Part shown: piece after piece, positions 6,687-35,364 of the stretch
How the letters are laid out: each line of letters opens with the position of its first letter
How positions within the stretch are numbered: the stretch's first letter is position 1
Source: an uncultured Verrucomicrobiota bacterium
GTDB taxonomy: Bacteria > Verrucomicrobiota > Verrucomicrobiia > Limisphaerales > UBA1319
DNA length: 64,000 nt
Assembly: GCA_903845125.1 (NCBI GenBank)
Contig: CAIMWS010000526.1
Location: 429 to 64,428 of the forward strand
Direction: 5' to 3'
Translations under genes and position numbers: made by a program
The notes under the pieces: generated by a model
What the model was told of the DNA's origin: nothing
The model's input: only the letters and a program-made list of their open reading frames with translations
The model's database searches: none

Positions 6687-7161
6687 GGTTGTTTTAAAAA
6701 AGCCGCTGAACCAAACGGCCCGCGGCCCGGCTCCGCCAGGATCGCCCATGCTTATAGGAGGCAGCATCCTGTATCCAAGACACCTAAACCACTTCCGCCA
6801 AAACGCAAATATTGGCGAAGCTGCCAGGGGCTGGAAATCTGGCCGCGGGCAATTCCAGGCCGGCGACCGGGAGTGGCCAGCCAATCTGGCCGGGCCGGAG
6901 GACCTGCCAGAAAAAAAGCCCCGAACCGCTCACTCAAGCGGCCGGGACGGTTTTGGTGTCAATTGGCGGTGCTTACCCTAACGGCATCCCGATTCCACGC
7001 AACCCATAGTTATAAATACTTTTCCCAAACATAATTTTCCCGAATAGAACCCGGCCTAAAAAAGCCAGCGGAGCAGCCAGAGTTATCGGCCGTGCTGGAT
7101 CTGCCCGGACCGGGCGGGAGTTTCAACTTGTATCCCGGATGGGTTGGTTTACCTTGGCCAT

Positions 7162-10100
7162 ATGTTCAGCCAACCGAGACATTTTGACCGGCCACAAATC
7201 ATATTCCCACCGGCCATCCCCGGCTTTGTCCTGAAGCCAAAACCGAAAAAAAACAACCTGGGCACGGGAAAGGCCATCTTTCGATTATGCAGGCTCTTTC
7301 CGCTGGTGTTGCTGGCGTTCGGATGGGCCACCGGGGCCGCACCCGCGCCAAGTTCAGGCCCGGCGCCGGGCACCCCAGTCACCCGCGCGCTGGCCCCGGA
7401 TGAAGCACGGCAGCGGATGGAGAAAGACTGGTTGTTCCAAGCCATGGGCGAGCCGCTGTTGCCAAGGACAATCAAGGAAATCGGCTGGAGCCGCGACCTG
7501 GTCCGGCGGCTGTCTCTCGCCCGGGCGGATTCCGCCTGGAAAGGTTTCCTGCGGGAACTGGAAGGCCTGGAGCAGCAAGCGGCCGCCCTGGCCGGCAAGC
7601 CGGCCGCCGGACGGGTGGCAATCCCAACCCAGGTGACGCCGAGCTGGATCTGGTTTCCGGAAGGCCAGCCCGCTCAGGATGCTCCCGCCGCCGCCCGGTT
7701 TTTCCGGTGCCAATTTGAAATCCCCGGGGAGGTCCGCTCCGCGGAGCTGCGCCTGGCAGCAGACGACATGGGCGAAGCTTTCCTCAATGGTACCCGGGTG
7801 GGTTTGCAGGAAACCTGGCAGCGGGCGGCGGTCTTCCCCGCCGGCGGATTAGTACGCTCCGGCCGCAATGTGCTGGCCGTGCGGGCGGAGAACCGGCCCG
7901 CGCCCAGCAAAAACCCGGCTGGCCTGATCGTCCGGCTGACGGTGAAGCTGGCCGGAGGCGGCCTGCTGGATTTTGTATCCGGAACCAACTGGCGGGCGGA
8001 AAAGGTGGAAATCCCCCAGTGGCAGGAGCCTGGTTTCGATGATGCCGCGTGGTCGCCAGCGGCCATCGCCGCCCCTTTCGGCGCGGGACCTTGGGGAAAA
8101 ATCGCCGGGTTGCAGGGGCCCGTCTTCGAGGACGATCCCGAGAGTTTCTATGCCGAGACCACCCCGGCGGTGCGGGACCTTTATTTTACCGTGAACCGCC
8201 TCAAGCGGGAGATCATGATGAAAAATCCGGCCCTGAATTTCAGCCAGATCCTGTTGATCGACCAACCGCTCCCGCAAGGGCCTGAATCCCTCCATGAGGC
8301 CATCCACCGGATGGGCATCATGGCGGTGCCTGGCGGGAGGCTGCTGGTGCTGGACGGCCTGCATCCAGGCGGGCAGGTGCGCCAGCTGGCGCCGGAGAAG
8401 CCGGGCAGTTTTTGGCGGCCGGACCTCTCCTTCGACACGCGCCGGGTGGTGTTCTGCTTCAAGCCGCACGATGAAAAGAGTTTCCACCTTTACGAGCTGA
8501 ACCTGGATGGCACCGGGCTGAAACAACTCACGGATAGCGAGTATGACGACATCGACCCGATCTACCTGCCCGACGGCCATATCCTGTTCACCACCACCCG
8601 GGGCAACTCTTACGTGCGCTGCGGCCCGTTCATCTACTCTTATATCCTGGCCCGCTGCGACGCCGATGGCAGCAATGTTTACCTGGTCAGCTACAACGGG
8701 GAGCCGGATTTTGTCCCCTCGCTGCTGGCGGATGGCCGCGTGATCTACTCGCGCTGGGAATATTCGGACAAGCCGCTCTGGCGTTTGCAGAAGCTGTGGA
8801 CCACCCGCCAGGATGGCACCGGCACGGCCCATTTCTGGGGCAACCAATCCGTCTGGCCCGACCACTTGTCCGAGCCCCGGCAGATACCCGGCAGCCGCCG
8901 GGTGATGTTCTCGGGCGTGGGGCACCACGATTGGTGGTCCGGGTCCATCGGAATTGTGGATCCGGATCAGGGCCGGGATTTCCCGCACGGACTGACCAAG
9001 GTCACCGCCGACCTGCCCTGGCCGGAAGTAACCCAGCCCCCGCAAGATCCCAGGGAGTCCGCCGATTACCACGCCTCCGGTAAATTCACCGGGTATAAAA
9101 CAGCTTACCCCCTGTCGGCGGAAGATTTCCTGGTTTCAGCCCGCGGCTCGGGTAACAAATTCCGGCTCTACCTGATGGATGTGCACGGGAACCGGACGCT
9201 GGTTTACGATGGCGCCTACAACACCTGGCACGCCCTGCCGGTGGTGGCCCGGGCCACGCCTCCCGTGCAGCCGGATCGCGTGGCCTGGCCGGGCACCGGC
9301 AAAAACCGCAAGCCGGTGGAGCCGGGCGTGTTCTACAGCGGGGACATCTGCCAGGGCGTGCCCGACCTGCCGCGGGAGCGCGTGAAGTATCTGCGGGTTT
9401 TCCAGCTGGACTACAAGACCTATTCCACCTGGAACAAAAGCTACCGGCATTCCGGCCCGGCGGTTTCCATCGTGCAGGAGGAGGGGGTAAAGCGGATCCT
9501 GTCGGAGGTGCCGGTGGAGGCTGATGGCTCGGTCTATTTCAAAGCCCCGGCGGGGCGGGCGCTATTTTTCCAGCTCCTGGACGCGGACCGGCGCTGCCTG
9601 CAGACCATGCGCAGTTTCACGGGGCTCCTGCCCGGCGAGCAGCGTGGCTGCGTGGGCTGCCACGAGATGCACAGCACCGCCCCGTCGCCCGCGGCGGGCC
9701 TGGCCTTGCGCCGCCCCCCCACCGAGCTATCGCCGCCGCCCTGGGGCGAGGAGAGCATCAGTTATGAACGCTTCGCACAGCCGGTTCTGGACCGGTATTG
9801 CATCAGCTGCCACCGGAGCCAGGCCGGGGAATCGGCGGAGCCGAACCTCGTGCTGCGGCCAGGGGTGAATGTGTTCAAGGAACCGTACCTCACTTTAGTG
9901 GGCCACGCTGGCTGGGGCAACCCGGTGGGCAAAGGGCGGCCAGGTTATGGCATCGCCGGGGCGATCCCGGTGGAAAGCGCCTACGACCAGAATGATCCCA
10001 AGGCCTTGGTTACGCTGCGACCTCTGCAATACCTGGCGGGCGCCAGCCACCTGGTGGACCTGGCGGCCAGCGGAAAGCACCACGGGGTGAAGGCGGATCC

Positions 10101-10257
10101 GCTCAGCTTGCACCGGCTGATCGCCTGGGTGGATGCCTGCTGCCCCTTCATGGGGGAGGAGGAACTGCGCGGATTGGGTGATCCGGAGTTCGCGGGCATC
10201 GACCGGCTGCCAATCCACCCGCGGGTAGCCTCGGCGCCGATCATTGAACGCCCGTGA
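7162..10257 (+). CDS. secreted multidomain protein: galactose-binding-like domain, TolB/PD40-like beta-propeller, two CxxCH heme motifs (HzsA-related type)
   Basis: Hydrophobic signal LFPLVLLAFGWATGAAP. FRCQFEIPGEVRSAELRLAADD..GRNVLAVRAEN is a GH2/rhamnosidase-N-like sugar-binding fold. LNLDGTGLKQLTDSEYDDIDPIYLPDGHILF is a PD40-like repeat. CVGCH lies at 9649..9663 and CISCH at 9799..9813. Confidence 0.7.
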   Translation: MFSQPRHFDRPQIIFPPAIPGFVLKPKPKKNNLGTGKAIFRLCRLFPLVLLAFGWATGAAPAPSSGPAPGTPVTRALAPDEARQRMEKDWLFQAMGEPLLPRTIKEIGWSRDLVRRLSLARADSAWKGFLRELEGLEQQAAALAGKPAAGRVAIPTQVTPSWIWFPEGQPAQDAPAAARFFRCQFEIPGEVRSAELRLAADDMGEAFLNGTRVGLQETWQRAAVFPAGGLVRSGRNVLAVRAENRPAPSKNPAGLIVRLTVKLAGGGLLDFVSGTNWRAEKVEIPQWQEPGFDDAAWSPAAIAAPFGAGPWGKIAGLQGPVFEDDPESFYAETTPAVRDLYFTVNRLKREIMMKNPALNFSQILLIDQPLPQGPESLHEAIHRMGIMAVPGGRLLVLDGLHPGGQVRQLAPEKPGSFWRPDLSFDTRRVVFCFKPHDEKSFHLYELNLDGTGLKQLTDSEYDDIDPIYLPDGHILFTTTRGNSYVRCGPFIYSYILARCDADGSNVYLVSYNGEPDFVPSLLADGRVIYSRWEYSDKPLWRLQKLWTTRQDGTGTAHFWGNQSVWPDHLSEPRQIPGSRRVMFSGVGHHDWWSGSIGIVDPDQGRDFPHGLTKVTADLPWPEVTQPPQDPRESADYHASGKFTGYKTAYPLSAEDFLVSARGSGNKFRLYLMDVHGNRTLVYDGAYNTWHALPVVARATPPVQPDRVAWPGTGKNRKPVEPGVFYSGDICQGVPDLPRERVKYLRVFQLDYKTYSTWNKSYRHSGPAVSIVQEEGVKRILSEVPVEADGSVYFKAPAGRALFFQLLDADRRCLQTMRSFTGLLPGEQRGCVGCHEMHSTAPSPAAGLALRRPPTELSPPPWGEESISYERFAQPVLDRYCISCHRSQAGESAEPNLVLRPGVNVFKEPYLTLVGHAGWGNPVGKGRPGYGIAGAIPVESAYDQNDPKALVTLRPLQYLAGASHLVDLAASGKHHGVKADPLSLHRLIAWVDACCPFMGEEELRGLGDPEFAGIDRLPIHPRVASAPIIERP

Positions 10258-26453: not shown

Positions 26454-26640
26454 TCCCGGCGGCGTTCCCGCCTGGGGGGCAGGGAACCAGCGTCCTGGTT
26501 GGTCATCCCCCATGATTTGGCGGCCGCTCTGGCGCACCGCCGGCAGGTGGCCGGGCGCGGCGGCGCGGACGGGAAGGAATTTGGCTGGCGCCGCGGATTG
26601 GCTTATGCGATGATGCCCACCCGTGCATAAACAGCGGGCC

Positions 26641-27528
26641 ATGTTCATGGAGGTAAAGACGGGCCGCATCCGGCCGATGCATCCTCGCGCCCTGCGGCAA
26701 TCCAGCGCCTCCAAGCCTTGGAGCGGTTATTTCATCGAAGAACATGCGCCCCTGGAAACCAGCCTGGCCAATATCCACCTGACGAACAGCGCTGTGCATC
26801 TGGTCCTGGACAGCCACACGGACATCGAATGGGCGAGCGGCGGCCATTCCGTCAGCCGGCGCCTGGCGCCAGGGCAGATCAGCATTCTGCCCGCCAACCA
26901 ACCTTATTCGGTCAAGCTGAGATCCTCCGGCGCGATCGTGATGGTATTCCTGGAGCAGAAACTGCTCTCCAGCGCCGCCGCTGAACAAGGGATATTCAAC
27001 CAGGTGGAACCGGTTTGGACCCATGGGGTGGAGGACCATCTCGTGCGCGAACTGGTGATGGGGCTGCGGGTGGAAATGCAGCGGCCGGACAGCACCCACC
27101 CCGGGTATTCCCGCTCGCTGGCGGCCACTTTGGCGGCCCGCCTGGTCCGGCACTATGCCACGGACCACCGCCAAACCGCGGAACAGCCGGGCGGCCTGGC
27201 GATACCCATCCTGCGCGCCACCATCCAATTCATCGAGGAACACCTGGCCGAGGACCTGCCGATCGAGCGCCTGGCCGCGCAGGCGCACTTGAGCCCGGCC
27301 CATTTCGCGCGCAGGTTCAAGCAAACCACTGGCCTGCCGCCTCATCAATACGTCCTGGACCACCGCCTGGCGCTCGCCCGGCTGCTGCTGGCGAAAAAAT
27401 CCGCTACCCTGGCCGAAGTGGCCGCGCAGGCCGGCTTTTGTGACCAGGGCCACCTGACCCGCTGCTTCCGCCAGTTCCTGGGCACCACCCCGGGCGCCTA
27501 TGCGAAAAACCTGGCCTCCCTTGGCTGA
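26641..27528 (+). CDS. AraC-family transcriptional regulator
   Basis: C-terminal AraC HTH: LAAQAHLSPAHFARRFKQTTGLPPHQYVLDHRLALARLLL...AGFCDQGHLTRCFRQFLGTTPGAY. Start could be ATG 26641 or GTG 26623. Confidence 0.85.
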   Translation: MFMEVKTGRIRPMHPRALRQSSASKPWSGYFIEEHAPLETSLANIHLTNSAVHLVLDSHTDIEWASGGHSVSRRLAPGQISILPANQPYSVKLRSSGAIVMVFLEQKLLSSAAAEQGIFNQVEPVWTHGVEDHLVRELVMGLRVEMQRPDSTHPGYSRSLAATLAARLVRHYATDHRQTAEQPGGLAIPILRATIQFIEEHLAEDLPIERLAAQAHLSPAHFARRFKQTTGLPPHQYVLDHRLALARLLLAKKSATLAEVAAQAGFCDQGHLTRCFRQFLGTTPGAYAKNLASLG

Positions 27529-27565
27529 ACCCAAGCAACCCGCCCGCGCCCCCGGGCAAGGCGGG

Positions 27566-29404
27566 TCATGGCTTGGTGATCTTTTCAGGCTCCCCGCTGG
27601 GGCCATGGCCCGCCCCGCCGGGACGCTGCGCAAACGCGGTCAAAGCGCCCACCAGGAACACCAGGGGATAGGCCTCCTCGTGATACCAAAGCGAGGCGAA
27701 GTAAAGGCCGATGGGGGCGGGCAGCAGGGCCGTTCCCAGGCGGGTCCGCTCCAGCAACCAGGCCAGGCCGCGCTCCGCCGCCTGGGCATACCGGGGACCG
27801 GCCAGGGCCAGGGCGCGGGTGGCCAGGGCCGTTTCCTCGACCGAAGCCGGCACGCCCTGGCTGCCGCCCCAGCCCCCGTCCTGGTTTTGCGCCGACTCCA
27901 GCCACTGGCATCCCTTGGCGATCAGGGGCGGGAGGGTGGCGAACTCCACCGGATCCAGCGCGCCCAGCGCCAGCACCACCTGGGCCGTGCCGTAAACCGG
28001 ATTGAGGTGGTCGGGCGCTGCCTGGTTGCCGAACCATAGCGGAACCCAGGCGCCTTCCGGAGCCTGGCTTTTGGCCAGGTAATCGAGGCCGCGCCTCAAG
28101 GCGGCTCCGATCCGCCGTTGCAGGCCGGCCCCGACCTCTTCCCGCCAGGCCACCCAAGCCCGCAGGGCATGGGCGGTGAGATCGGGGCAACTGCGGTCGA
28201 AAGGCAATTTGCCCCAGCCACGGCAGAAGGTCGGCAGGCCGCCGTCGCGGTTTTGCAGAGCCAGCAGCCACCGGATGCCGGCCACGGCCGCCCGCCGCGT
28301 GCCGGCCGGGGCGCCCAGTTTTTTCAAAGCCAGCAGGGCGCCGGAGGTGTCATCGGCGTCGGGAACCCCACCGGAAAGGTCCGTCCAGGCCCAGCCGCCG
28401 GGAGCGGCCCGGGTGAACGGATGTGGCCGCTGGTGCTGCTGGCCGAGCAGCCATTGGAGCACCGCCTGGCGCTGGGTGGAGGAGAGGCTTTGATCCACCT
28501 CCGCATCCAGGTTGTTGATGGCCAGGGTGGTGACCCAGGTGGCCAGATTGGTGTCGATCGGCCAGCTGCCATCGGGGCGGACCGAGGCCTCGAGGAACCG
28601 GACCCCATCCCGGGCGGCCGGGTGGCCGGCATGGCCGGCAGCCGCCAGCCCCAAGGCCACAAACGCGGTCAGGGGCGTCGCTTCCAGGAACCCGCCGGAA
28701 GCGGGCTGCATGCGCCGCAGGATTCCCAGGGCGCGCCGCCGCTGCCACTCCCGCAGCCAACCCAGGATGGACCAGCGGCGGCGGGCATGATGGTGGCGGA
28801 CCAGCCCGATGGCGATCAGCGCCGGGATGGCATAACTGACCACCGACAACCGCAGCCAGCGAAACAAGGCCCCGGGCAGCAGCGCCAGTTCAAAGGGCAA
28901 CTGGGGCACCCGCGCCCAGGCCTGGCCCGCCTCGCCCAGGCGGCCCGCCAGGGCGCACACGGTGAGGATGGGCGCGGAGAACGTACGATCCTGGCCATAA
29001 AACCGGAGGACCGCCGCCGCGATCGTGGCCGGGTCCAGCCCGCCCAGGCGCTGGCGCAGCCAATCCTCCGTCTTTTGAAGCACCGGCGCGAACCGGCCGG
29101 GCACGGCTTGGGATAACGCCGCCCACGCCAGCAGCGTGGTGCTCAGGTTGGCCGGGCTGGCAGGGGTGTCGCCCCACCCGCCACCGGGATTGAGGTGATC
29201 CGCCAGCCACTGGCAACCCTGGTCCACCAGCCGGGCGTGGTGCTGGCGATCGATCGTCCCCAAGGCCAGCACGGCGACGGCGGTCGAGAGCGCGCTGCTC
29301 GCCAGCCGCCCCTCCCAACACCCCGCGGGATTGAAGGTGGCCAGGAGCTTTTGCCGGGCATTGGCCAGCGCCTGGTGGGCTTGTGGGTGGAGCGACCGGC
29401 TCAT
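27566..29404 (-). CDS. class II terpene cyclase, squalene-hopene-cyclase-like (612 aa)
   Basis: GGWAWTDLSGGVPDADDTSGALLAL carries a DxDD(T) protonation motif (D-A-D-D at 28349..28360). QW-like repeats: LQNRDGGL, AQNQDGGWGG, VRPDGSWP, LNPGGGWG. The start is trimmed to ATG 29404, 7 nt after the upstream stop. The 794-aa ORF extension overlaps gene 29412..30362 in another frame. Confidence 0.8.
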   Translation of the reverse strand: MSRSLHPQAHQALANARQKLLATFNPAGCWEGRLASSALSTAVAVLALGTIDRQHHARLVDQGCQWLADHLNPGGGWGDTPASPANLSTTLLAWAALSQAVPGRFAPVLQKTEDWLRQRLGGLDPATIAAAVLRFYGQDRTFSAPILTVCALAGRLGEAGQAWARVPQLPFELALLPGALFRWLRLSVVSYAIPALIAIGLVRHHHARRRWSILGWLREWQRRRALGILRRMQPASGGFLEATPLTAFVALGLAAAGHAGHPAARDGVRFLEASVRPDGSWPIDTNLATWVTTLAINNLDAEVDQSLSSTQRQAVLQWLLGQQHQRPHPFTRAAPGGWAWTDLSGGVPDADDTSGALLALKKLGAPAGTRRAAVAGIRWLLALQNRDGGLPTFCRGWGKLPFDRSCPDLTAHALRAWVAWREEVGAGLQRRIGAALRRGLDYLAKSQAPEGAWVPLWFGNQAAPDHLNPVYGTAQVVLALGALDPVEFATLPPLIAKGCQWLESAQNQDGGWGGSQGVPASVEETALATRALALAGPRYAQAAERGLAWLLERTRLGTALLPAPIGLYFASLWYHEEAYPLVFLVGALTAFAQRPGGAGHGPSGEPEKITKP

Positions 29405-29411
29405 GCGCGGG

Positions 29412-30362
29412 TCAGGCCAGCAGGTGCCCCAGGGCCAGCAGCCCGTAAAAGGTGTATTCGCTGTCCACCTCGTGGTCGGCCAGGTGGCCGCCAAAGCCGC
29501 CCCCCTCCGCCCAGAGCGATTCCACGAATTCCAGGCAGGCCTGGCGGCCCTCCGCCAGCGGCTGTCCCATGGCCGCCAAAGCGTGCAGGGCGGTGGCCGT
29601 GGAGAGGAGGTCCGGCATGGGGGTTCCCGCCGCCGCCAGGAATCCGCCGCAGGGATGCAGCCGGTCCCGCAAGAATCCGGCGGCGGCCGCGGGCACCGGG
29701 CATCCCAGGCGGGACCACAGCACCAGACCGGCGGCGGCCACCGGCGTGGCGCCGGCCCACACTTCGGATCCGGCCGGGGAGTGGCCTCCCCCAGCCGCCA
29801 ACTGGCCCGCCCAGCGCTGGAAATCCCCAAGCCGGGGCATCGCCAAGCCCGATTCCTCGTAGGCCAGCAGCGCCAGGAATCCGTCGTAGATGGATCCGCT
29901 GCGCGCCGGGGGGGCAGCCGGAGCGCCCGCGCCCACCGCGCTCCGCTCATAACCGCCGTCCGGGCAGCGGAATTGTTCCAAACCGTGGAAGACCTGCTGG
30001 TTCACCGCCGTCTCCCCACGGGTTTCCGGCAGCAAGCCCCGGCAGCGGGCCAGGCAGATCCGGTGGACGAAATCCAACCCCGCGCCCGTGGCGAATCCGC
30101 GCAGGTATCCGGCCGTGAGCGGTGCGGCGGGCAGGCCCAAGCCCTGGCAGCAGGCCAGCTGGAACACCGAATAATAGAGATCGGCCGCCCCCCCCCGCCC
30201 CCGGGCAGCTCCCTCCGGAAGCCATTGGCGCCGGAGAAAATCGGCCAACTGGCCGCGCAGGGCGGGATCCAGGCTCCCGGCCGCCCGGTGGATGACGGCC
30301 AGCATTTCCTGGCTGATGGTCTGGCTCACCGTTGGGGGGACTGGCGCGCTGTCAGCCGGCAT
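29412..30362 (-). CDS. prenyltransferase / terpene-cyclase alpha-alpha-toroid repeat protein (no DxDD motif)
   Basis: Repeats of the prenyltransferase beta-subunit type: CPDGGYE, HPCGGFLAA, AEGGGFGGHLADHEVDSEYTFYGLLALGHL. ATG at 30362 overlaps the last 11 nt of the upstream gene. Confidence 0.7.
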   Translation of the reverse strand: MPADSAPVPPTVSQTISQEMLAVIHRAAGSLDPALRGQLADFLRRQWLPEGAARGRGGAADLYYSVFQLACCQGLGLPAAPLTAGYLRGFATGAGLDFVHRICLARCRGLLPETRGETAVNQQVFHGLEQFRCPDGGYERSAVGAGAPAAPPARSGSIYDGFLALLAYEESGLAMPRLGDFQRWAGQLAAGGGHSPAGSEVWAGATPVAAAGLVLWSRLGCPVPAAAAGFLRDRLHPCGGFLAAAGTPMPDLLSTATALHALAAMGQPLAEGRQACLEFVESLWAEGGGFGGHLADHEVDSEYTFYGLLALGHLLA

Positions 30363-32052
30363 CGACAATCCTTCCGACCAGCCGCCGCAGCAGGCCTTTG
30401 AGCTGCGCGTTGCGCAGGGGGCTGAGGGAACGGATGGCCTCGTTTTTGTAATGCTCCAGCAGCTGCTGGGCCTTTTCCTCCACGCGCTGGGCGGCCATCG
30501 CGGACCGGATCAAGGCGGGCAGCTGGCGATCCCGGGCCGCGGATTTCCAGGCCTCCACCATGGCGGCCTGCATATCCCCGGCGGCATTTTCGTAGGCCAG
30601 GGCCTGCAGGATGGAAGGCTGCAGCGCGGGCAGGCCGGTGGCCTGGGTGTTCAGGTCATCGAGGTCGTCGCGGATCTGAAAGGCGATCCCCAGGGATTCG
30701 CTGAAGGTCTTGAGCACCGGGTGCACCTCGCTCCCGGCCTGGCCGCAGAGGGCGCCGATCCGCAGGGCCACCTCGAAGGCCGGTGCGGTTTTCCGCCGGA
30801 ACAGCTCGAGCACCTTGCGGGGGGAGAGGGCCCCGGGGTCGCGCATCCAGCACAACTCCTCGCCCTGGCCCAGGCAAAGGTTGTGGTGGGCCTCCGCCAC
30901 CACCGCCAGCATGTCCGCCACCTGGGCCGGAGGCGCGCCGCTGGCGGCCACCAGCCGGTATCCTTCACCCAGCAGGAAATCGCCGATGTTCACCGCGATG
31001 GGGATGCCGTGGCTCTGGTGAACCGTCGGGCTGCCGTAGCGGAAGCTGTCCTCGTCCTCGATGTCGTCGTGGACCAGCGAAGCTTTGTGGAAGCATTCCA
31101 TGGCCACCGCCAGTTTCCGCACGGAATCCGGCAGGGGGCCCTCTTCCAGGCCGGTCACCGCCCGGTAAACGCAGGCCGCCAGCACCGGCCGCCAGCGCTT
31201 GCCCGCTCCGGAGAGCCAGCCCAGCGCGATTTCCCCGGTCTGGGTGTTTTCCAGGGCCAGGATGGCGCGCAGCGCCTCCGGCTGGAACCACGTCTCCACC
31301 TCCAGCTTGAGCCGGTCGATATCCACCCGGCCCAGCCAGGAGGCGTTGGATTTCAGCTGGATCGCCTCCACCACCCAATCCAGGTCCACCGCGGTGTTCT
31401 CGCAGCCGTCCCGCACCAGCGGCAGGGCCAGGCCCGGGATGGCGTGGGCCGCCATGTGCGGAAAGGCGCGCTCCAGCACCGGGAGGCAGCTGACGCCGAT
31501 CACGGCATCCACCGTGCCCTGCTCGAGCAGCCGGGTGACCACCGTGGTGCCCTCCGCCACCAGCACCACGTAGCCGAGCTGCTCGGCCCGGGCCTGGATG
31601 CCGCCGGTCGGACATTGCCCGCACTGTTCGCAAAGCAGCCCGAGTTTGTCCATGGGGGCCGGGCAGGTTTTTTTGTCGCGCAGGCATTGGGGCAGCATCA
31701 ATACCCGGCGGTCGTACGGGATGCCCGCCATGGTGTCCCACCACACCGCGTTGGCGGTGAGGACCGTGATGAAATCGCGGTAGTCCGCGCGAAAGCCGGT
31801 GGCTGCCAGGATCGCATCCGCATGCCCCCGCAGCTCTTCGATGGAGAGGGGGGGCACCAGCTCCCGCTGCACCACATATTGGCGCACCGCCGTCCGGACG
31901 GCCTCCCGCTCCGCCTTCTGCGGGGGGACCTTGATCCCCTGGCCGGCGGAGCTGGCGTGCCCATGCACCGAGGGATCGGCCAGGGCGTGGGCGAGGCTGC
32001 TCCGGGCGGCAGCGGGCTGGAATTCGGGTTTCATGCGGTTCAGTGTTGCCAA
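30352..32052 (-). CDS. fusion of a Cys-rich DUF116-like domain with a trans-polyprenyl diphosphate synthase
   Basis: The C-terminal half has both Asp-rich motifs: DDIED at 31054..31068 and DDLDD at 30655..30669. The N-terminal half (RRVLMLPQCLRDKKTCPAP..LCEQCGQCP..VLVAEGTTVV..VIGVSCLP..DGCENT) resembles DUF116. Start is TTG 32052 or ATG 32034. Confidence 0.8.
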   Translation of the reverse strand: MATLNRMKPEFQPAAARSSLAHALADPSVHGHASSAGQGIKVPPQKAEREAVRTAVRQYVVQRELVPPLSIEELRGHADAILAATGFRADYRDFITVLTANAVWWDTMAGIPYDRRVLMLPQCLRDKKTCPAPMDKLGLLCEQCGQCPTGGIQARAEQLGYVVLVAEGTTVVTRLLEQGTVDAVIGVSCLPVLERAFPHMAAHAIPGLALPLVRDGCENTAVDLDWVVEAIQLKSNASWLGRVDIDRLKLEVETWFQPEALRAILALENTQTGEIALGWLSGAGKRWRPVLAACVYRAVTGLEEGPLPDSVRKLAVAMECFHKASLVHDDIEDEDSFRYGSPTVHQSHGIPIAVNIGDFLLGEGYRLVAASGAPPAQVADMLAVVAEAHHNLCLGQGEELCWMRDPGALSPRKVLELFRRKTAPAFEVALRIGALCGQAGSEVHPVLKTFSESLGIAFQIRDDLDDLNTQATGLPALQPSILQALAYENAAGDMQAAMVEAWKSAARDRQLPALIRSAMAAQRVEEKAQQLLEHYKNEAIRSLSPLRNAQLKGLLRRLVGRIVDAG

Positions 32053-32062
32053 TGCCGGCGCC

Positions 32063-33256
32063 TCAACCGTAAGCCCCGAAGCCGAAAAACCAATGTTTTT
32101 TGGCGAAGCGGTAAACCCAGCTGCGCTCGGGTATTTCCTGGCCGGGCACGTGGTGGCTGGGCCGCGGCCGCAGGGCGGCCAGCTCGGCGAGGCCCGTGTT
32201 CCGGCCGGTCGTATCCGCGGCGCCCTCCCGCTCCAGGAACTGGCGGAGTTCCGCGGGGTGGTCCATGATCACACAGCCGCGGGTGGTGCGGGCGGAGAAT
32301 TCCCGGAACCGGGCGAGGTATTCTGAATGGGATATTTTTTCCACCAACCCGCGGCCATCCCCAATGTTTTCCTTCGCGAATTGAATGACCGGGCACGGCT
32401 CGATATCCCCGCCCGGGCCGATGTGGTGGCTGATGCCGGTGGCCGCGGGGCAGAGCGCCCGGCCCGCGTGGTCCCAGTAGGCATCCACCAGGATCAGGGG
32501 CGCGTGGCACCGGGTGTCCACCATGAACCGCCGCAACTGGAGGATCTCCGCCGTCTCCAGCGCCAACTCCGGGGCGGGGGTGGCCCCCACCGGCCGGTAA
32601 ATATAATACCACAGGTAATGCGCGCCCCGCCGCACCAGGTCATTCACAAAATCCTGGCTGGCGAGATCGGCAAAATTGGAGCGGCAGACGCTGGTGGCCA
32701 CGCCGATGAACAATCCCTGGCGGCGGCAGTGCTCCAGCCCTTCCATGGCCCGTCGGTAAACCTCGCGGCCGCCCCGGCGTTCGTCGCTCACCCGCTCCCG
32801 GCCCTCGATGCTGATCAAAGGGGTTACGTTGCCCAGCCGGCGCATTTCGCGGGCATGGTCTTCGGTTAGGAGGGTGCCGTTGGTGAACACCTGGAAATAG
32901 CAGTCCGGGTGCCGGCCGATCACCTCGAACAACCCTGCGTGCAGCAGCGGTTCGCCGCCGAGGATCCCGAAAAAGGAGGCCCCCATCTGTTGACACTCGA
33001 CGATGGTCTGCTCCAGCGTGGCGCTGTCCAGGGCACGGGCGGGCCGGTCCACGCTCACCCAGCAGCCCTGGCAACGCAGGTTGCAGGCGCTGGTCACGGA
33101 GAGAAACACGAACGCCGGGAAGGGGCGGCCTTGCTTGAGCCGCCGGTTGAAGGCGCCGATGGCCCGCATGCCTTTCCAGCCGCAATTCCACGCCAGCTTG
33201 GCCAGCAGGCGGGTATCACACTCCTTCAGCAGCCGGTAAGTTAATCGGGCCAGCAT
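32063..33256 (-). CDS. radical SAM enzyme (no B12-binding or SPASM domain evident)
   Basis: CNLRCQGC (CxxxCxxC) at 33062..33085, followed by GGEPLLH and a TIM-barrel-like core. ATG at 33256 is preceded by GAGGA. Confidence 0.85.
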   Translation of the reverse strand: MLARLTYRLLKECDTRLLAKLAWNCGWKGMRAIGAFNRRLKQGRPFPAFVFLSVTSACNLRCQGCWVSVDRPARALDSATLEQTIVECQQMGASFFGILGGEPLLHAGLFEVIGRHPDCYFQVFTNGTLLTEDHAREMRRLGNVTPLISIEGRERVSDERRGGREVYRRAMEGLEHCRRQGLFIGVATSVCRSNFADLASQDFVNDLVRRGAHYLWYYIYRPVGATPAPELALETAEILQLRRFMVDTRCHAPLILVDAYWDHAGRALCPAATGISHHIGPGGDIEPCPVIQFAKENIGDGRGLVEKISHSEYLARFREFSARTTRGCVIMDHPAELRQFLEREGAADTTGRNTGLAELAALRPRPSHHVPGQEIPERSWVYRFAKKHWFFGFGAYG

Positions 33257-33260
33257 GATT

Positions 33261-33265
33261 TCCTC
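33261..33265 (-). promoter_or_regulatory. Shine-Dalgarno-like GAGGA for the radical SAM gene
   Basis: The minus strand reads TGA GAGGAAATC ATG between the ferredoxin stop (33266..33268) and the radical SAM start (33256). Confidence 0.45.
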
Positions 33266-33997
33266 TCAACTTTCATCCACGACCGGGTCTTTGACAAGCC
33301 GGGTCCGCGACTGCTTCCGGCGCGCGGCCAAGGCCGCATAGGCATCGGTCCCCAGCACCTCCGCCAGGTTGATCTTCACGCGGCCCTTCTCCACGCTCTG
33401 TTCATCCACCGGCGATCCATCCACCGGGGCCTGATTGAACTTCGGGAACATGATGGCCGCCTCGGGGCAGACCCGGGCGCAGGCGGGGCAGTTGTTTTTG
33501 CAGCTTTGGGGATCCGCCACGGTGATCCAGCCCCGCTCATCTCTTGCGTAAACGCCAAACAGGCAAAAGCTCAAGCATTGCCGGCAGTTGTTGCACCGGT
33601 CGAAGTCAATCACCGGGAACCATGGCGCCCAGCTTTCCGGGGGCGCTGGCGAAGGGGTGCCCGGGCCGGGGCTGGGCGGTTCCGCCACCGGCGGCACGGA
33701 GGCCGGGGCGATTCCTTCCCGCATTTCCCCTCCGGCAGCCAGGGCCACGAGGCGGGCGGCCACCGTGTCCGCTGATTCCACGCGCAGGTTGGAGCAATCC
33801 ACGCCGGCCGCCCATGTGTGCCCCGCGGCGTGGAGCAGCCATTTCACCGCCCGCGGATGACAGGCCACGATCCGCAGGGGGTTGCCGGCCAGCATTTCGC
33901 GCAATGCCGGGCTTCTCCGGCCCACCAAGCCGCACAGGTCCGGCACCGCCAGGTGGGGAATCCGCGCTTGTTCCAGCGCGGCCAGAACCTGGCCCAC
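33266..33997 (-). CDS. 4Fe-4S dicluster ferredoxin-domain protein (N-terminus uncertain)
   Basis: CNNCRQCLSFC and CKNNCPACARVCP lie at 33467..33595. The annotated start is GTG 33997. In-frame sequence upstream (GPTILLCRCSDREPAFSAA) still looks coding; see the findings. Confidence 0.7.
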   Translation of the reverse strand: MGQVLAALEQARIPHLAVPDLCGLVGRRSPALREMLAGNPLRIVACHPRAVKWLLHAAGHTWAAGVDCSNLRVESADTVAARLVALAAGGEMREGIAPASVPPVAEPPSPGPGTPSPAPPESWAPWFPVIDFDRCNNCRQCLSFCLFGVYARDERGWITVADPQSCKNNCPACARVCPEAAIMFPKFNQAPVDGSPVDEQSVEKGRVKINLAEVLGTDAYAALAARRKQSRTRLVKDPVVDES

Positions 33998-34527
33998 CGC
34001 CGCGGAAAAAGCCGGCTCCCGATCCGAGCATCGGCAGAGCAGGATCGTCGGGCCTCACGTTTCACAATATTCTCCGTGGCGGACATGGTCATCAATTCCA
34101 GCACATGAATTAAACCCAGGCTTCGGCAAGCGTCAAATAGGAATCCAGCGGGGCACCGGCCGGGAATGAGGCCCGCCCCCAGCCAGTCTGCGGCGCCCCC
34201 GGCAGATCCCGGGAACCGGCCACGGCCAAACTGAAAATGCATAACGAACAACCCCGAGCGCCGGACGGCCCGGAACTCAAGCCAGCCGCCGGGCGCCGCC
34301 AATCCCGGGCCGTTTATTACCCGCGGGGCGCGGCAGGCGGATTGGCGCCCCCGATGGGTTGGCCGATGGATTTGCCTTGTTTAGTCTTCCTAAAACAGGG
34401 AGCATGATGCCCAAGCAGTGGTGATTATCGAGCATTATGATCGCCAAGGGTCCGGCGCAGCGGCGGCAGGCTTGGCCAGCCCCTCAGCGCCGGCCACCGG
34501 AGTTTAAACTGGCAGTTGAATACCTAT

Positions 34528-35364
34528 ATGAACCTGAAACTCTATACGAACCGCCTGGCGGTTTGCAGCTGGTCGCTGCAGCCCAAATCCCCGGACGACC
34601 TGGCCGACCAACTGGACGCCATCGGCATCCACCGCGTGCAACTGGCCCTGGACCCGATCCGCGAAAACCCGGCCACCTGGGGCGCCTGCTTTGAGGTGCT
34701 GAAAAAACGGGGGGTGGAAACGGCCTCCGGGATGATGACCTGCGTGGGCGAGGATTATTCCACCCTGGAATCCATCCGCCTCACCGGCGGGCTGACGCCG
34801 GACCATACGTGGGAGCAAAACCTGAAGAATTTCACCGAGAACGCGGATCTCATGCGGAAAAACGGGCTGGCCATGACCATGTTCCACGCCGGCTTCCTGC
34901 CCCACGAGGAGCGCGATCCCAATTTCGCCAAAATGCTCCACCGCCTGGAGACGGTGGCGGACGTGTTCGCCGTGCGGGGCCTGAACCTGATCCTGGAAAC
35001 CGGCCAGGAATCCGGACCGGCGCTGCTGGCCTTCCTGAAACATCTGAACCGGCCCAACGTGGCCGCCAATTTCGACCCGGCCAACATGATCCTTTACAAC
35101 AACGGCAACCCCATCGACACCTTGCGGATCCTCGGCCAATACGTCCGCAACGTCCACATCAAGGACGCCAACGTGACGAAGGTTCCGGGCACCTGGGGGG
35201 AGGAAGTGGTGACCGGCACCGGCCAGGTGGAGTGGCCGCGGTTCTTCGCGGCGCTCAACGAAATCGGCTTCAGCGGCGATCTGTGCATCGAACGCGAAGC
35301 GGGGAACCAGCGCGTGGCGGATATCCGGGCGGCCCGTGCCTATCTCACCAAACTACTGGCCTGA
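34528..35364 (+). CDS. sugar phosphate isomerase/epimerase (xylose-isomerase-like TIM barrel)
   Basis: Family-typical pattern: LILETGQESG, NVAANFDPANMILY, VHIKDA, LCIERE. ATG at 34528 is preferred over TTG at 34516. Confidence 0.8.
   Translation: MNLKLYTNRLAVCSWSLQPKSPDDLADQLDAIGIHRVQLALDPIRENPATWGACFEVLKKRGVETASGMMTCVGEDYSTLESIRLTGGLTPDHTWEQNLKNFTENADLMRKNGLAMTMFHAGFLPHEERDPNFAKMLHRLETVADVFAVRGLNLILETGQESGPALLAFLKHLNRPNVAANFDPANMILYNNGNPIDTLRILGQYVRNVHIKDANVTKVPGTWGEEVVTGTGQVEWPRFFAALNEIGFSGDLCIEREAGNQRVADIRAARAYLTKLLA

Follow-up and report, generated by a model that had tools for sequence, protein, structure and literature searches.

What does a bacterium make with five adjacent genes for an iron–sulfur (Fe–S) protein, a radical S-adenosylmethionine (SAM) enzyme, a polyprenyl diphosphate synthase fused to a DUF116 domain, an alpha/alpha-toroid protein and a class II terpenoid cyclase? 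The question is raised by a 64-kb stretch of DNA from an uncultured Verrucomicrobiota bacterium (contig CAIMWS010000526.1; hereafter the window), in which the five genes lie side by side on the minus strand between positions 27566 and 34045. An earlier reading of the bare letters (hereafter the original prediction) had taken them for a pathway to a cyclised, radical-SAM-modified polyprenoid that bypasses squalene. We found that the five genes form a genuine operon that is conserved across several bacterial phyla, and we consider it slightly more probable than an even chance that it directs the synthesis of a cyclised isoprenoid, most likely a lipid of the membrane, by a route independent of squalene. 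The non-squalene character of the pathway is supported by three observations: The cyclase is not a squalene-hopene cyclase (SHC), the radical SAM enzyme is not HpnH, and the five genes are conserved together. That the isoprenoid is modified by the radical SAM enzyme is suggested by gene linkage, and the radical step could precede the cyclisation.

In the order of transcription, the genes encode the Fe–S protein (33266..34045, start uncertain; Pfam Fer4 families), a radical SAM enzyme of 397 amino acids (aa) that we call type A (32063..33256; Pfam Radical_SAM, 64 bits), the DUF116::trans-polyprenyl diphosphate synthase fusion (30352..32052, starting at TTG 32052 or ATG 32034), a stand-alone toroid protein of 316 aa (29412..30362; Pfam Prenyltrans) and a class II, or protonation-initiated, cyclase of 612 aa (27566..29404; Pfam SQHop_cyclase_N and _C). 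The open reading frame (ORF) of the cyclase extends upstream to 29950, and its homologues align from ATG 29404, giving the length of 612 aa. The map of ORFs and a base-by-base reading of all four junctions agree on the tight packing, and each spacing given in the original prediction is correct. The stop of the Fe–S gene (TGA 33268-33266) is followed after 9 nt, with GAGGA inside, by the radical SAM start (ATG 33256); the radical SAM stop (32065-32063) precedes the fusion by 10 or 28 nt, depending on the start codon; the fusion stop (30354-30352) lies within an 11-nt overlap with the toroid gene (ATG 30362); and the toroid stop (29414-29412) is 7 nt from the cyclase ATG. We read the genes as an operon because of the 11-nt overlap, the gaps of 7–10 nt and the lack of excess terminator-like sites: Such sites in 27000-34700 were not above the shuffled expectation. 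A scan of the same interval for sigma-70-type promoters found no consensus match; the intergenic region of ~470 bp (34046..34515) between the operon and a divergent sugar-isomerase-like gene is the presumed promoter region.

The GC content of the operon peaks at 28–32 kb, which made us consider horizontal transfer. The peak is an excess at codon positions 1 and 2, and we rejected transfer since the GC content at third codon positions equals that of the neighbouring genes; for the same reason the operon looks native. The nearest homologues are in Verrucomicrobiota metagenome-assembled genomes. Long antisense ORFs of 332–658 aa overlie the operon on the plus strand (window 28118-32268, e.g. 30292-32268). 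They recur elsewhere only as shadows of conserved GC-rich sense genes, and we discarded them as genes.

To describe the conservation, we scanned one genome per species for relatives of the fusion gene, found these in at least 585 genomes and kept 80 loci; the presence counts below take only loci with enough flanking sequence on the relevant side or sides. The five genes are conserved together in the same order and on the same strand (ferredoxin-type protein, radical SAM, fusion, toroid, cyclase) across Acidobacteriota and the phyla of the Planctomycetota–Verrucomicrobiota–Chlamydiota (PVC) group, the loci with the recurring order coming from Verrucomicrobiota, Kiritimatiellae, Lentisphaerae, Planctomycetota and Acidobacteriota. 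Of 58 loci, 49 have the Fe–S gene, and 37 of 58 have radical SAM type A; the toroid gene occurs in 58 of 70 loci and the cyclase gene in 28 of 55. Both flanks could be assessed in 42 loci, of which 20 contain the complete set. In loci without a nearby cyclase gene, the cyclase may be optional or encoded elsewhere. Inspection of the gaps of split loci revealed no recurrent genes.

The cyclase has the features that the original prediction ascribed to it. It matches Pfam SQHop_cyclase_C with 138 bits and SQHop_cyclase_N with 66 bits, carries DADDT at 28346-28360 and contains five QW-like repeats. It aligns to the SHC of A. acidocaldarius with E=5e-25, PDADDT falling on PDVDDT, TAH on TAH and YGT on YGT, so that the acid apparatus of the reference enzyme (DxDD with D376, and the helpers H451 and Y495) is intact. 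Among the homologues of the cyclase, D349, D351, D352, H412, W457, F458 and G472 are invariant and Y471 is nearly so; the equivalents of SHC H451, W489 and Y495 are thus invariant or nearly invariant in the family. On the other hand, an orthodox SHC is excluded, as the protein scores 108.4 bits against the SHC equivalog TIGR01507 with a cut-off of 431, and 118 bits against the squalene/oxidosqualene cyclase subfamily model with a cut-off of 322.

We give almost no weight to the reading in which the locus is an ordinary hopanoid locus, with an SHC, an HpnH and squalene genes elsewhere. Several databases do call homologues of the cyclase "squalene--hopene cyclase," and the DxDD motif and QW repeats would suit that name, but both of the enzymes that would define such a locus fall far under their equivalog cut-offs (for the radical SAM protein, see below), and the window lacks the companions. 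A search with Pfam models of the large ORFs, precomputed Pfam matches of the called genes and six-frame PROSITE-type patterns, the last being a weak test for short genes, found neither a squalene nor a phytoene synthase, none of the hpn genes (hpnC/D/E, hpnG or others) and no other isoprenoid gene within the 64 kb, in agreement with the original prediction. Furthermore, the cluster is found in lineages in which true SHC is reported to be rare (10.1101/2025.07.29.667474), and the literature sets its cyclase clade apart from SHC (PMC7306690, PMC12324236).

That clade is the one to which the cyclase, judged by shared properties, fits. Santana-Molina et al. (2020) describe an "SHC-like" clade whose planctomycete members retain the catalytic residues and whose genomic context suggests a precursor other than squalene (PMC7306690). 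McShea et al. (2025) label the same clade as of "unknown function," with a function undemonstrated even in Gemmata and no structure (PMC12324236), and report that substitutions on its stem are unusually frequent at the SHC-type dimer surface (PMC12414744), which is consistent with a changed partner of the cyclase. Compared with these accounts (PMC7306690, PMC12324236), the cyclase shares the range over PVC bacteria and Acidobacteriota, including loci of Gemmataceae, the length (612 aa within 550–700 aa), the catalytic residues and the non-squalene context; no feature of it contradicts membership. The cyclase clade and its odd context are therefore already in print, and we do not present a new family. 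The parts of the main texts of PMC7306690, PMC12324236 and PMC12414744 that we could consult contain no radical SAM enzyme or its replacement, no Fe–S proteins, no DUF116 fusion, no disabled toroid paralogue and no extended operon, all of which are described here. We found no paper in the literature that characterises the five-gene cluster.

The radical SAM enzyme gives a similar picture. The identity as HpnH is excluded, as the model TIGR03470 reaches 47.7 bits with a cut-off of 225 and covers only the radical SAM core, and none of the NCBIfam models reaches its cut-off. The protein shows an invariant CNLRCQGC (CxxxCxxC: C58, C62, C65), a partial TIM barrel and the further invariant cysteines C177, C191, C269, C288 and C328, those near the C terminus being putative ligands of an auxiliary cluster. 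It thus belongs to the SPASM/twitch structural type. In its AlphaFold2 model, with a predicted local distance difference test (pLDDT) score of 90, the nearest solved folds are SkfB, SuiB, BlsE, anSME and PqqE, and Tes is found at rank 45. Homologues across phyla are 60–71% identical and nearly all 397 aa long. The last 14 residues (32063-32104) form a hydrophobic tail, FAKKHWFFGFGAYG, which is invariant or nearly so across phyla, has low confidence in the model and looks like a membrane- or partner-binding segment. No counterpart of the enzyme appears in a review that covers the radical SAM enzymes of lipid modification up to 2025 (PMC13459092).

Type A is not the only radical SAM enzyme at this position. 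In 9–10 Planctomycetota loci without it, an unrelated radical SAM protein of ~600 aa is encoded between the Fe–S and fusion genes (L009 8104-9927; L010, L013, L025, L032, L035, L040, L066, L080), with weak matches to the B12-domain family TIGR04013 and to MiaB/RimO. It could be a non-orthologous replacement or perform a different modification.

The third gene encodes the synthase fusion. Its DUF116 domain (aa 83-231; 31360..31806) scores 105.5 bits against PF01976 with a gathering cut-off of 25, the polyprenyl synthase domain (30355..31275) scores 138 bits against PF00348, and both domains are present in all of the best 120 homologues. The DUF116 half contains seven invariant cysteines (C123, C130, C141, C144, C147, C189 and C217), including a CxxCxxC (C141-x2-C144-x2-C147), and presumably binds an Fe–S cluster; its sequence profile found no relative among solved structures. 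The fusion was seen in Pirellula staleyi by Makarova et al., who proposed a flavodoxin-like fold and a role in electron transfer for DUF116 (PMC5898192). The AlphaFold2 model of the fusion has a pLDDT of 81.5, with low confidence confined to the cysteine loops, and the synthase half shows the all-helical fold of many synthases with a Foldseek probability of 1.00. As the synthase half dominates the search with the whole model and its neighbours mix geranylgeranyl diphosphate (GGPP) synthases with C30–C50 synthases, that search is uninformative for both DUF116 and the chain length.

The chain length can be approached through the residues before the first aspartate-rich motif (FARM). Both DDxxD motifs named in the original prediction are present, DDIED in the FARM (31054-31077) and DDLDD, and each is invariant among the homologues. 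A bulky residue at position -5 from the FARM caps the chain length, as established by mutational work on farnesyl diphosphate (FPP) and GGPP synthases. The archaeal GGPP synthases 1wy0 and 5jfq, the nearest solved sequences, have Tyr or Phe at -5; here this position is an invariant Ala, with Ser at -4 and Phe at -8, one helical turn deeper. Since Ala replaces the chain-capping aromatic residue of the GGPP synthases and Phe lies at -8, the product is predicted to be longer than C20, roughly C25–C30. No NCBIfam equivalog of a chain-length class attains its cut-off with the synthase.

The chain length bears directly on an alternative in which the operon is a diterpenoid (C20) or other specialised-metabolite cluster, GGPP being converted to a bicyclic or tricyclic prenyl diphosphate by labdane-type cyclisation and then tailored by the radical SAM enzyme. 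We regard this as unlikely. The closest solved and profiled synthases are indeed GGPP and FPP synthases, homologues of the fusion are labelled GGPP synthase by JGI, and class II cyclases with polyprenyl diphosphate substrates are familiar; the authors of a study on a Bipolaricaulota isolate have also connected a gene set of loose similarity with an antibacterial terpenoid, though without proof from genetics (10.1101/2025.11.21.689855). Against these stand the Ala at the position of the aromatic stop residue and the tree of McShea et al. (PMC12324236), in which the SHC-like clade falls on the triterpenoid side and has a gamma domain of the triterpenoid type. The wide and largely phylum-congruent distribution and the 60–70% identity of the radical SAM enzymes suit a core function better, and the cluster is without a class I synthase, a P450 or any other common tailoring gene.

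The fourth gene was described in the original prediction as a second toroid-repeat protein; this is correct for the fold, but the protein appears to be a cyclase paralogue without the catalytic Asp, and a partner rather than an enzyme. Its match to Pfam Prenyltrans (26.7 bits) barely exceeds the cut-off of 26.5, and it matches the beta subunit of RabGGTase locally (E=3e-5). A comparison with the cyclase by BLASTP was not significant (E=0.2), being confused by the internal repeats, and a usable alignment was obtained only between profiles: hhalign places core on core with a probability of 87% and E=4e-6. In that alignment, PDLLST lies opposite PDADDT and an invariant L253 occupies the position of the catalytic Asp, so that neither DxDD nor DxD is present. 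By these sequence comparisons we class the protein as a catalytically disabled paralogue of the cyclase. The family comprises 283 representative clusters at E<=1e-30, almost all of them stand-alone proteins of ~300 aa. One metagenomic protein of 898 aa (P0436) joins a toroid (22-290) to a cyclase (316-888) whose sequence is 54% identical to that of the window, and a role as a partner of the cyclase seems more likely than that of a second enzyme.

The first gene also proved more complex than expected. The original prediction gave the radical SAM enzyme a dedicated 2x[4Fe-4S] partner, and the C terminus of the Fe–S protein is indeed such a ferredoxin domain (Pfam Fer4 dicluster); what had been missed is an additional N-terminal domain with four invariant cysteines and no Pfam match. 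Cys 7, 9, 41 and 65, counted in the extended frame, are conserved without exception in 18 homologues, as are the eight cysteines of the ferredoxin domain. Homologues align from residues 1–4 of that frame. In many relatives, the two domains are encoded as separate ORFs. The position previously given as the end of the ferredoxin gene, 34092, is mistaken, as ATG 34092 sits in another frame. The reading frame opens only after TGA 34057-34055, and its sole canonical start is GTG 33997, the choice of gene callers, which truncates the conserved four-cysteine domain: Cys7 and Cys9 are encoded upstream of it (33998-34057). Because these two invariant cysteines precede the only canonical start, the true start is probably a noncanonical codon, most likely ATC 34045, preceded by GAGG at a distance of 7 nt. 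The sequence is identical in an independent contig from a metagenome (L001).

Many relatives add genes to this set. In 25–29 loci (among L002-L081), including many from Planctomycetota and Acidobacteriota and some from Verrucomicrobiota, the operon is lengthened upstream by three genes, often with 4-nt overlaps (e.g. L046 4321-14371 and L011 4559-14318). These encode an IscS/NifS-type cysteine desulfurase, a GcvH-family protein whose representative sequences retain the lipoyl-lysine position, and a GTPase of the CobW/COG0523 type that carries GCFCC. The toroid family in turn conserves D97-x2-H100-x2-C103 (residues 97-103, 30054-30074), which could be a metal site and would then give the GTPase of the related operons a client.

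The extended operons bring in the alternative that the genes form a redox or cofactor-maturation module that builds or modifies a prenylated cofactor or protein, with the toroid proteins binding the prenyl group. The three genes directly upstream and the retained lipoyl-lysine position speak for it, as do the role in electron transfer proposed for DUF116, the peptide maturases among the structural neighbours of the radical SAM enzyme, and the likeness of the toroid protein to the beta subunits of protein prenyltransferases together with its conserved Asp, His and Cys. The complete and invariant acid-catalysis apparatus of the cyclase would, however, be pointless in a mere binding protein. No NifS-, GcvH- or CobW-like gene is present in the 64-kb window, and neither a precursor peptide nor a gene for a prenyltransferase alpha subunit was seen. 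With these points combined, we judge such a module quite improbable.

Under the lipid pathway that we prefer, the synthase half of the fusion would extend an allylic diphosphate with isopentenyl diphosphate to an all-trans, head-to-tail polyprenyl diphosphate of roughly C25–C30. The cyclase would protonate a terminal C=C bond of its putative polyprenyl substrate through the middle Asp of DxDD, aided by the SHC-like His and Tyr, and then fold the chain into fused rings without oxygen, while the toroid protein may act as its partner by binding the lipid or handing it over. The radical SAM enzyme would perform one radical step on the isoprenoid, reduced via the two-domain Fe–S protein and perhaps also via the Fe–S domain of DUF116, and this step may either yield the substrate of the cyclase or tailor its product. 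Candidate chemistries are the formation of a C–C bond and the addition of an adenosyl radical to an alkene as in HpnH.

Several observations weigh against this pathway. Only about half of the judgeable loci have the cyclase gene within 10 kb, and a simple lipid pathway does not account for the NifS-, GcvH- and CobW-like genes upstream in many relatives. The closest structural relatives of the radical SAM enzyme act on peptides or small molecules, not on lipids. The predicted chain length is drawn from two positions only, and by sequence and profile the synthase comes closest to short-chain (FPP/GGPP) enzymes, none of which it matches above the cut-off. The clade of the cyclase is assigned by shared properties, and its partnership with the toroid protein is drawn from linkage and the single P0436 fusion, which may be an artefact of a frameshift or gene calling. 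Finally, no product has been reported for any member of the cluster.

With the SHC/hpn pathway the operon shares a class II cyclase built of two toroids, with QW repeats and a DxDD motif assisted by His and Tyr; both also have a radical SAM enzyme encoded nearby and are independent of oxygen. The operon differs from that pathway by its own chain-elongating synthase, the DUF116 Fe–S domain, the dedicated Fe–S protein and the extra toroid, and by the lack of squalene genes in the window. The sporulenol pathway of Bacillus (HepS/HepT, YtpB, SqhC) is similar in that a dedicated synthase supplies a head-to-tail chain to a cyclase of the SHC family, but the operon has radical SAM and Fe–S components in place of a YtpB-type class I synthase that would take off the diphosphate, and the cyclase clade and the taxa are different. 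The epoxy-polyprenyl cyclases (Lon15, AtoE, Bra4, PlaT2), the sister clade according to McShea et al., act on regular head-to-tail chains of C20 to C40. They require an epoxidised substrate and oxygen and belong mostly to the secondary metabolism of actinomycetes, whereas the operon has no epoxidase, keeps the alkene-protonating DxDD, His and Tyr and occurs in strict anaerobes. Like the radical SAM enzymes of lipid pathways (Tes, Mss, GrsA/B, HpnH, HpnJ, HpnP/R and Jaw5), type A is genetically tied to isoprenoid lipids, and the ferredoxin gene beside it is shared with a reported Tes homologue (PMC13459092). In contrast, none of these families is matched above its cut-off, type A has no B12 domain, and Tes is distant.

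Hopanoids, sterols and other cyclic terpenoids make membranes stiffer and are preserved as molecular fossils, and in this context one cyclase clade spread over several major phyla is still without an assigned substrate or product. The operon offers a compact and complete-looking gene set for it and, being expressible as it is, a good experimental entry point. If its product were identified, thousands of proteins mislabelled as squalene-hopene cyclase in the databases would gain a function, the idea that bacteria form rings from regular polyprenyl chains in the absence of oxygen would be put to a test, and a new isoprenoid reaction of a radical SAM enzyme would probably come to light. The evolutionary scenarios published for triterpenoid cyclases likewise hinge on the substrate of the SHC-like clade. 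The product could possibly provide a source for orphan terpane biomarkers. Oils and sediments are rich in tricyclic terpanes (cheilanthanes), for which Ourisson and co-workers reportedly proposed tricyclohexaprenol-type lipids as precursors. A bolder version of the lipid pathway, which we hold to be speculative and decidedly unlikely, is that the cluster is the biological source of polycyclic regular head-to-tail polyprenoids of this kind, made by anaerobic or facultative PVC bacteria and Acidobacteria without oxygen or squalene and with an Fe–S/radical SAM step that has no known terpenoid counterpart; this step could, for example, be a reductive or radical processing of the polyprenyl diphosphate.

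Divergently upstream of the operon lie a xylose-isomerase-like gene (34516-35364; protein matched by Pfam) and a gene for a Gfo/Idh/MocA oxidoreductase, and the remainder of the window encodes glycoside hydrolases, galactose-utilisation genes, a GMP synthase, sensor kinases and secretion components; no tRNA or Rfam family was found in the window. An AraC-family gene is convergent at the 3-prime end of the operon (26623-27528, plus strand), as had been noted, but it is not a conserved neighbour: It stands beside the cluster only in the organism to which the window and contig L001 belong, and the other 80 loci gave two weak matches, both distant. With the adjacency not conserved, we rejected AraC as a dedicated regulator of the cluster. 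Elsewhere in the window, a protein of 1037 aa (7144-10257, plus strand) matches a single Pfam family, which describes the middle domain of the alpha subunit of hydrazine synthase (82 bits). Such a domain is unexpected outside anammox bacteria and is probably a beta-propeller-associated domain in another context.

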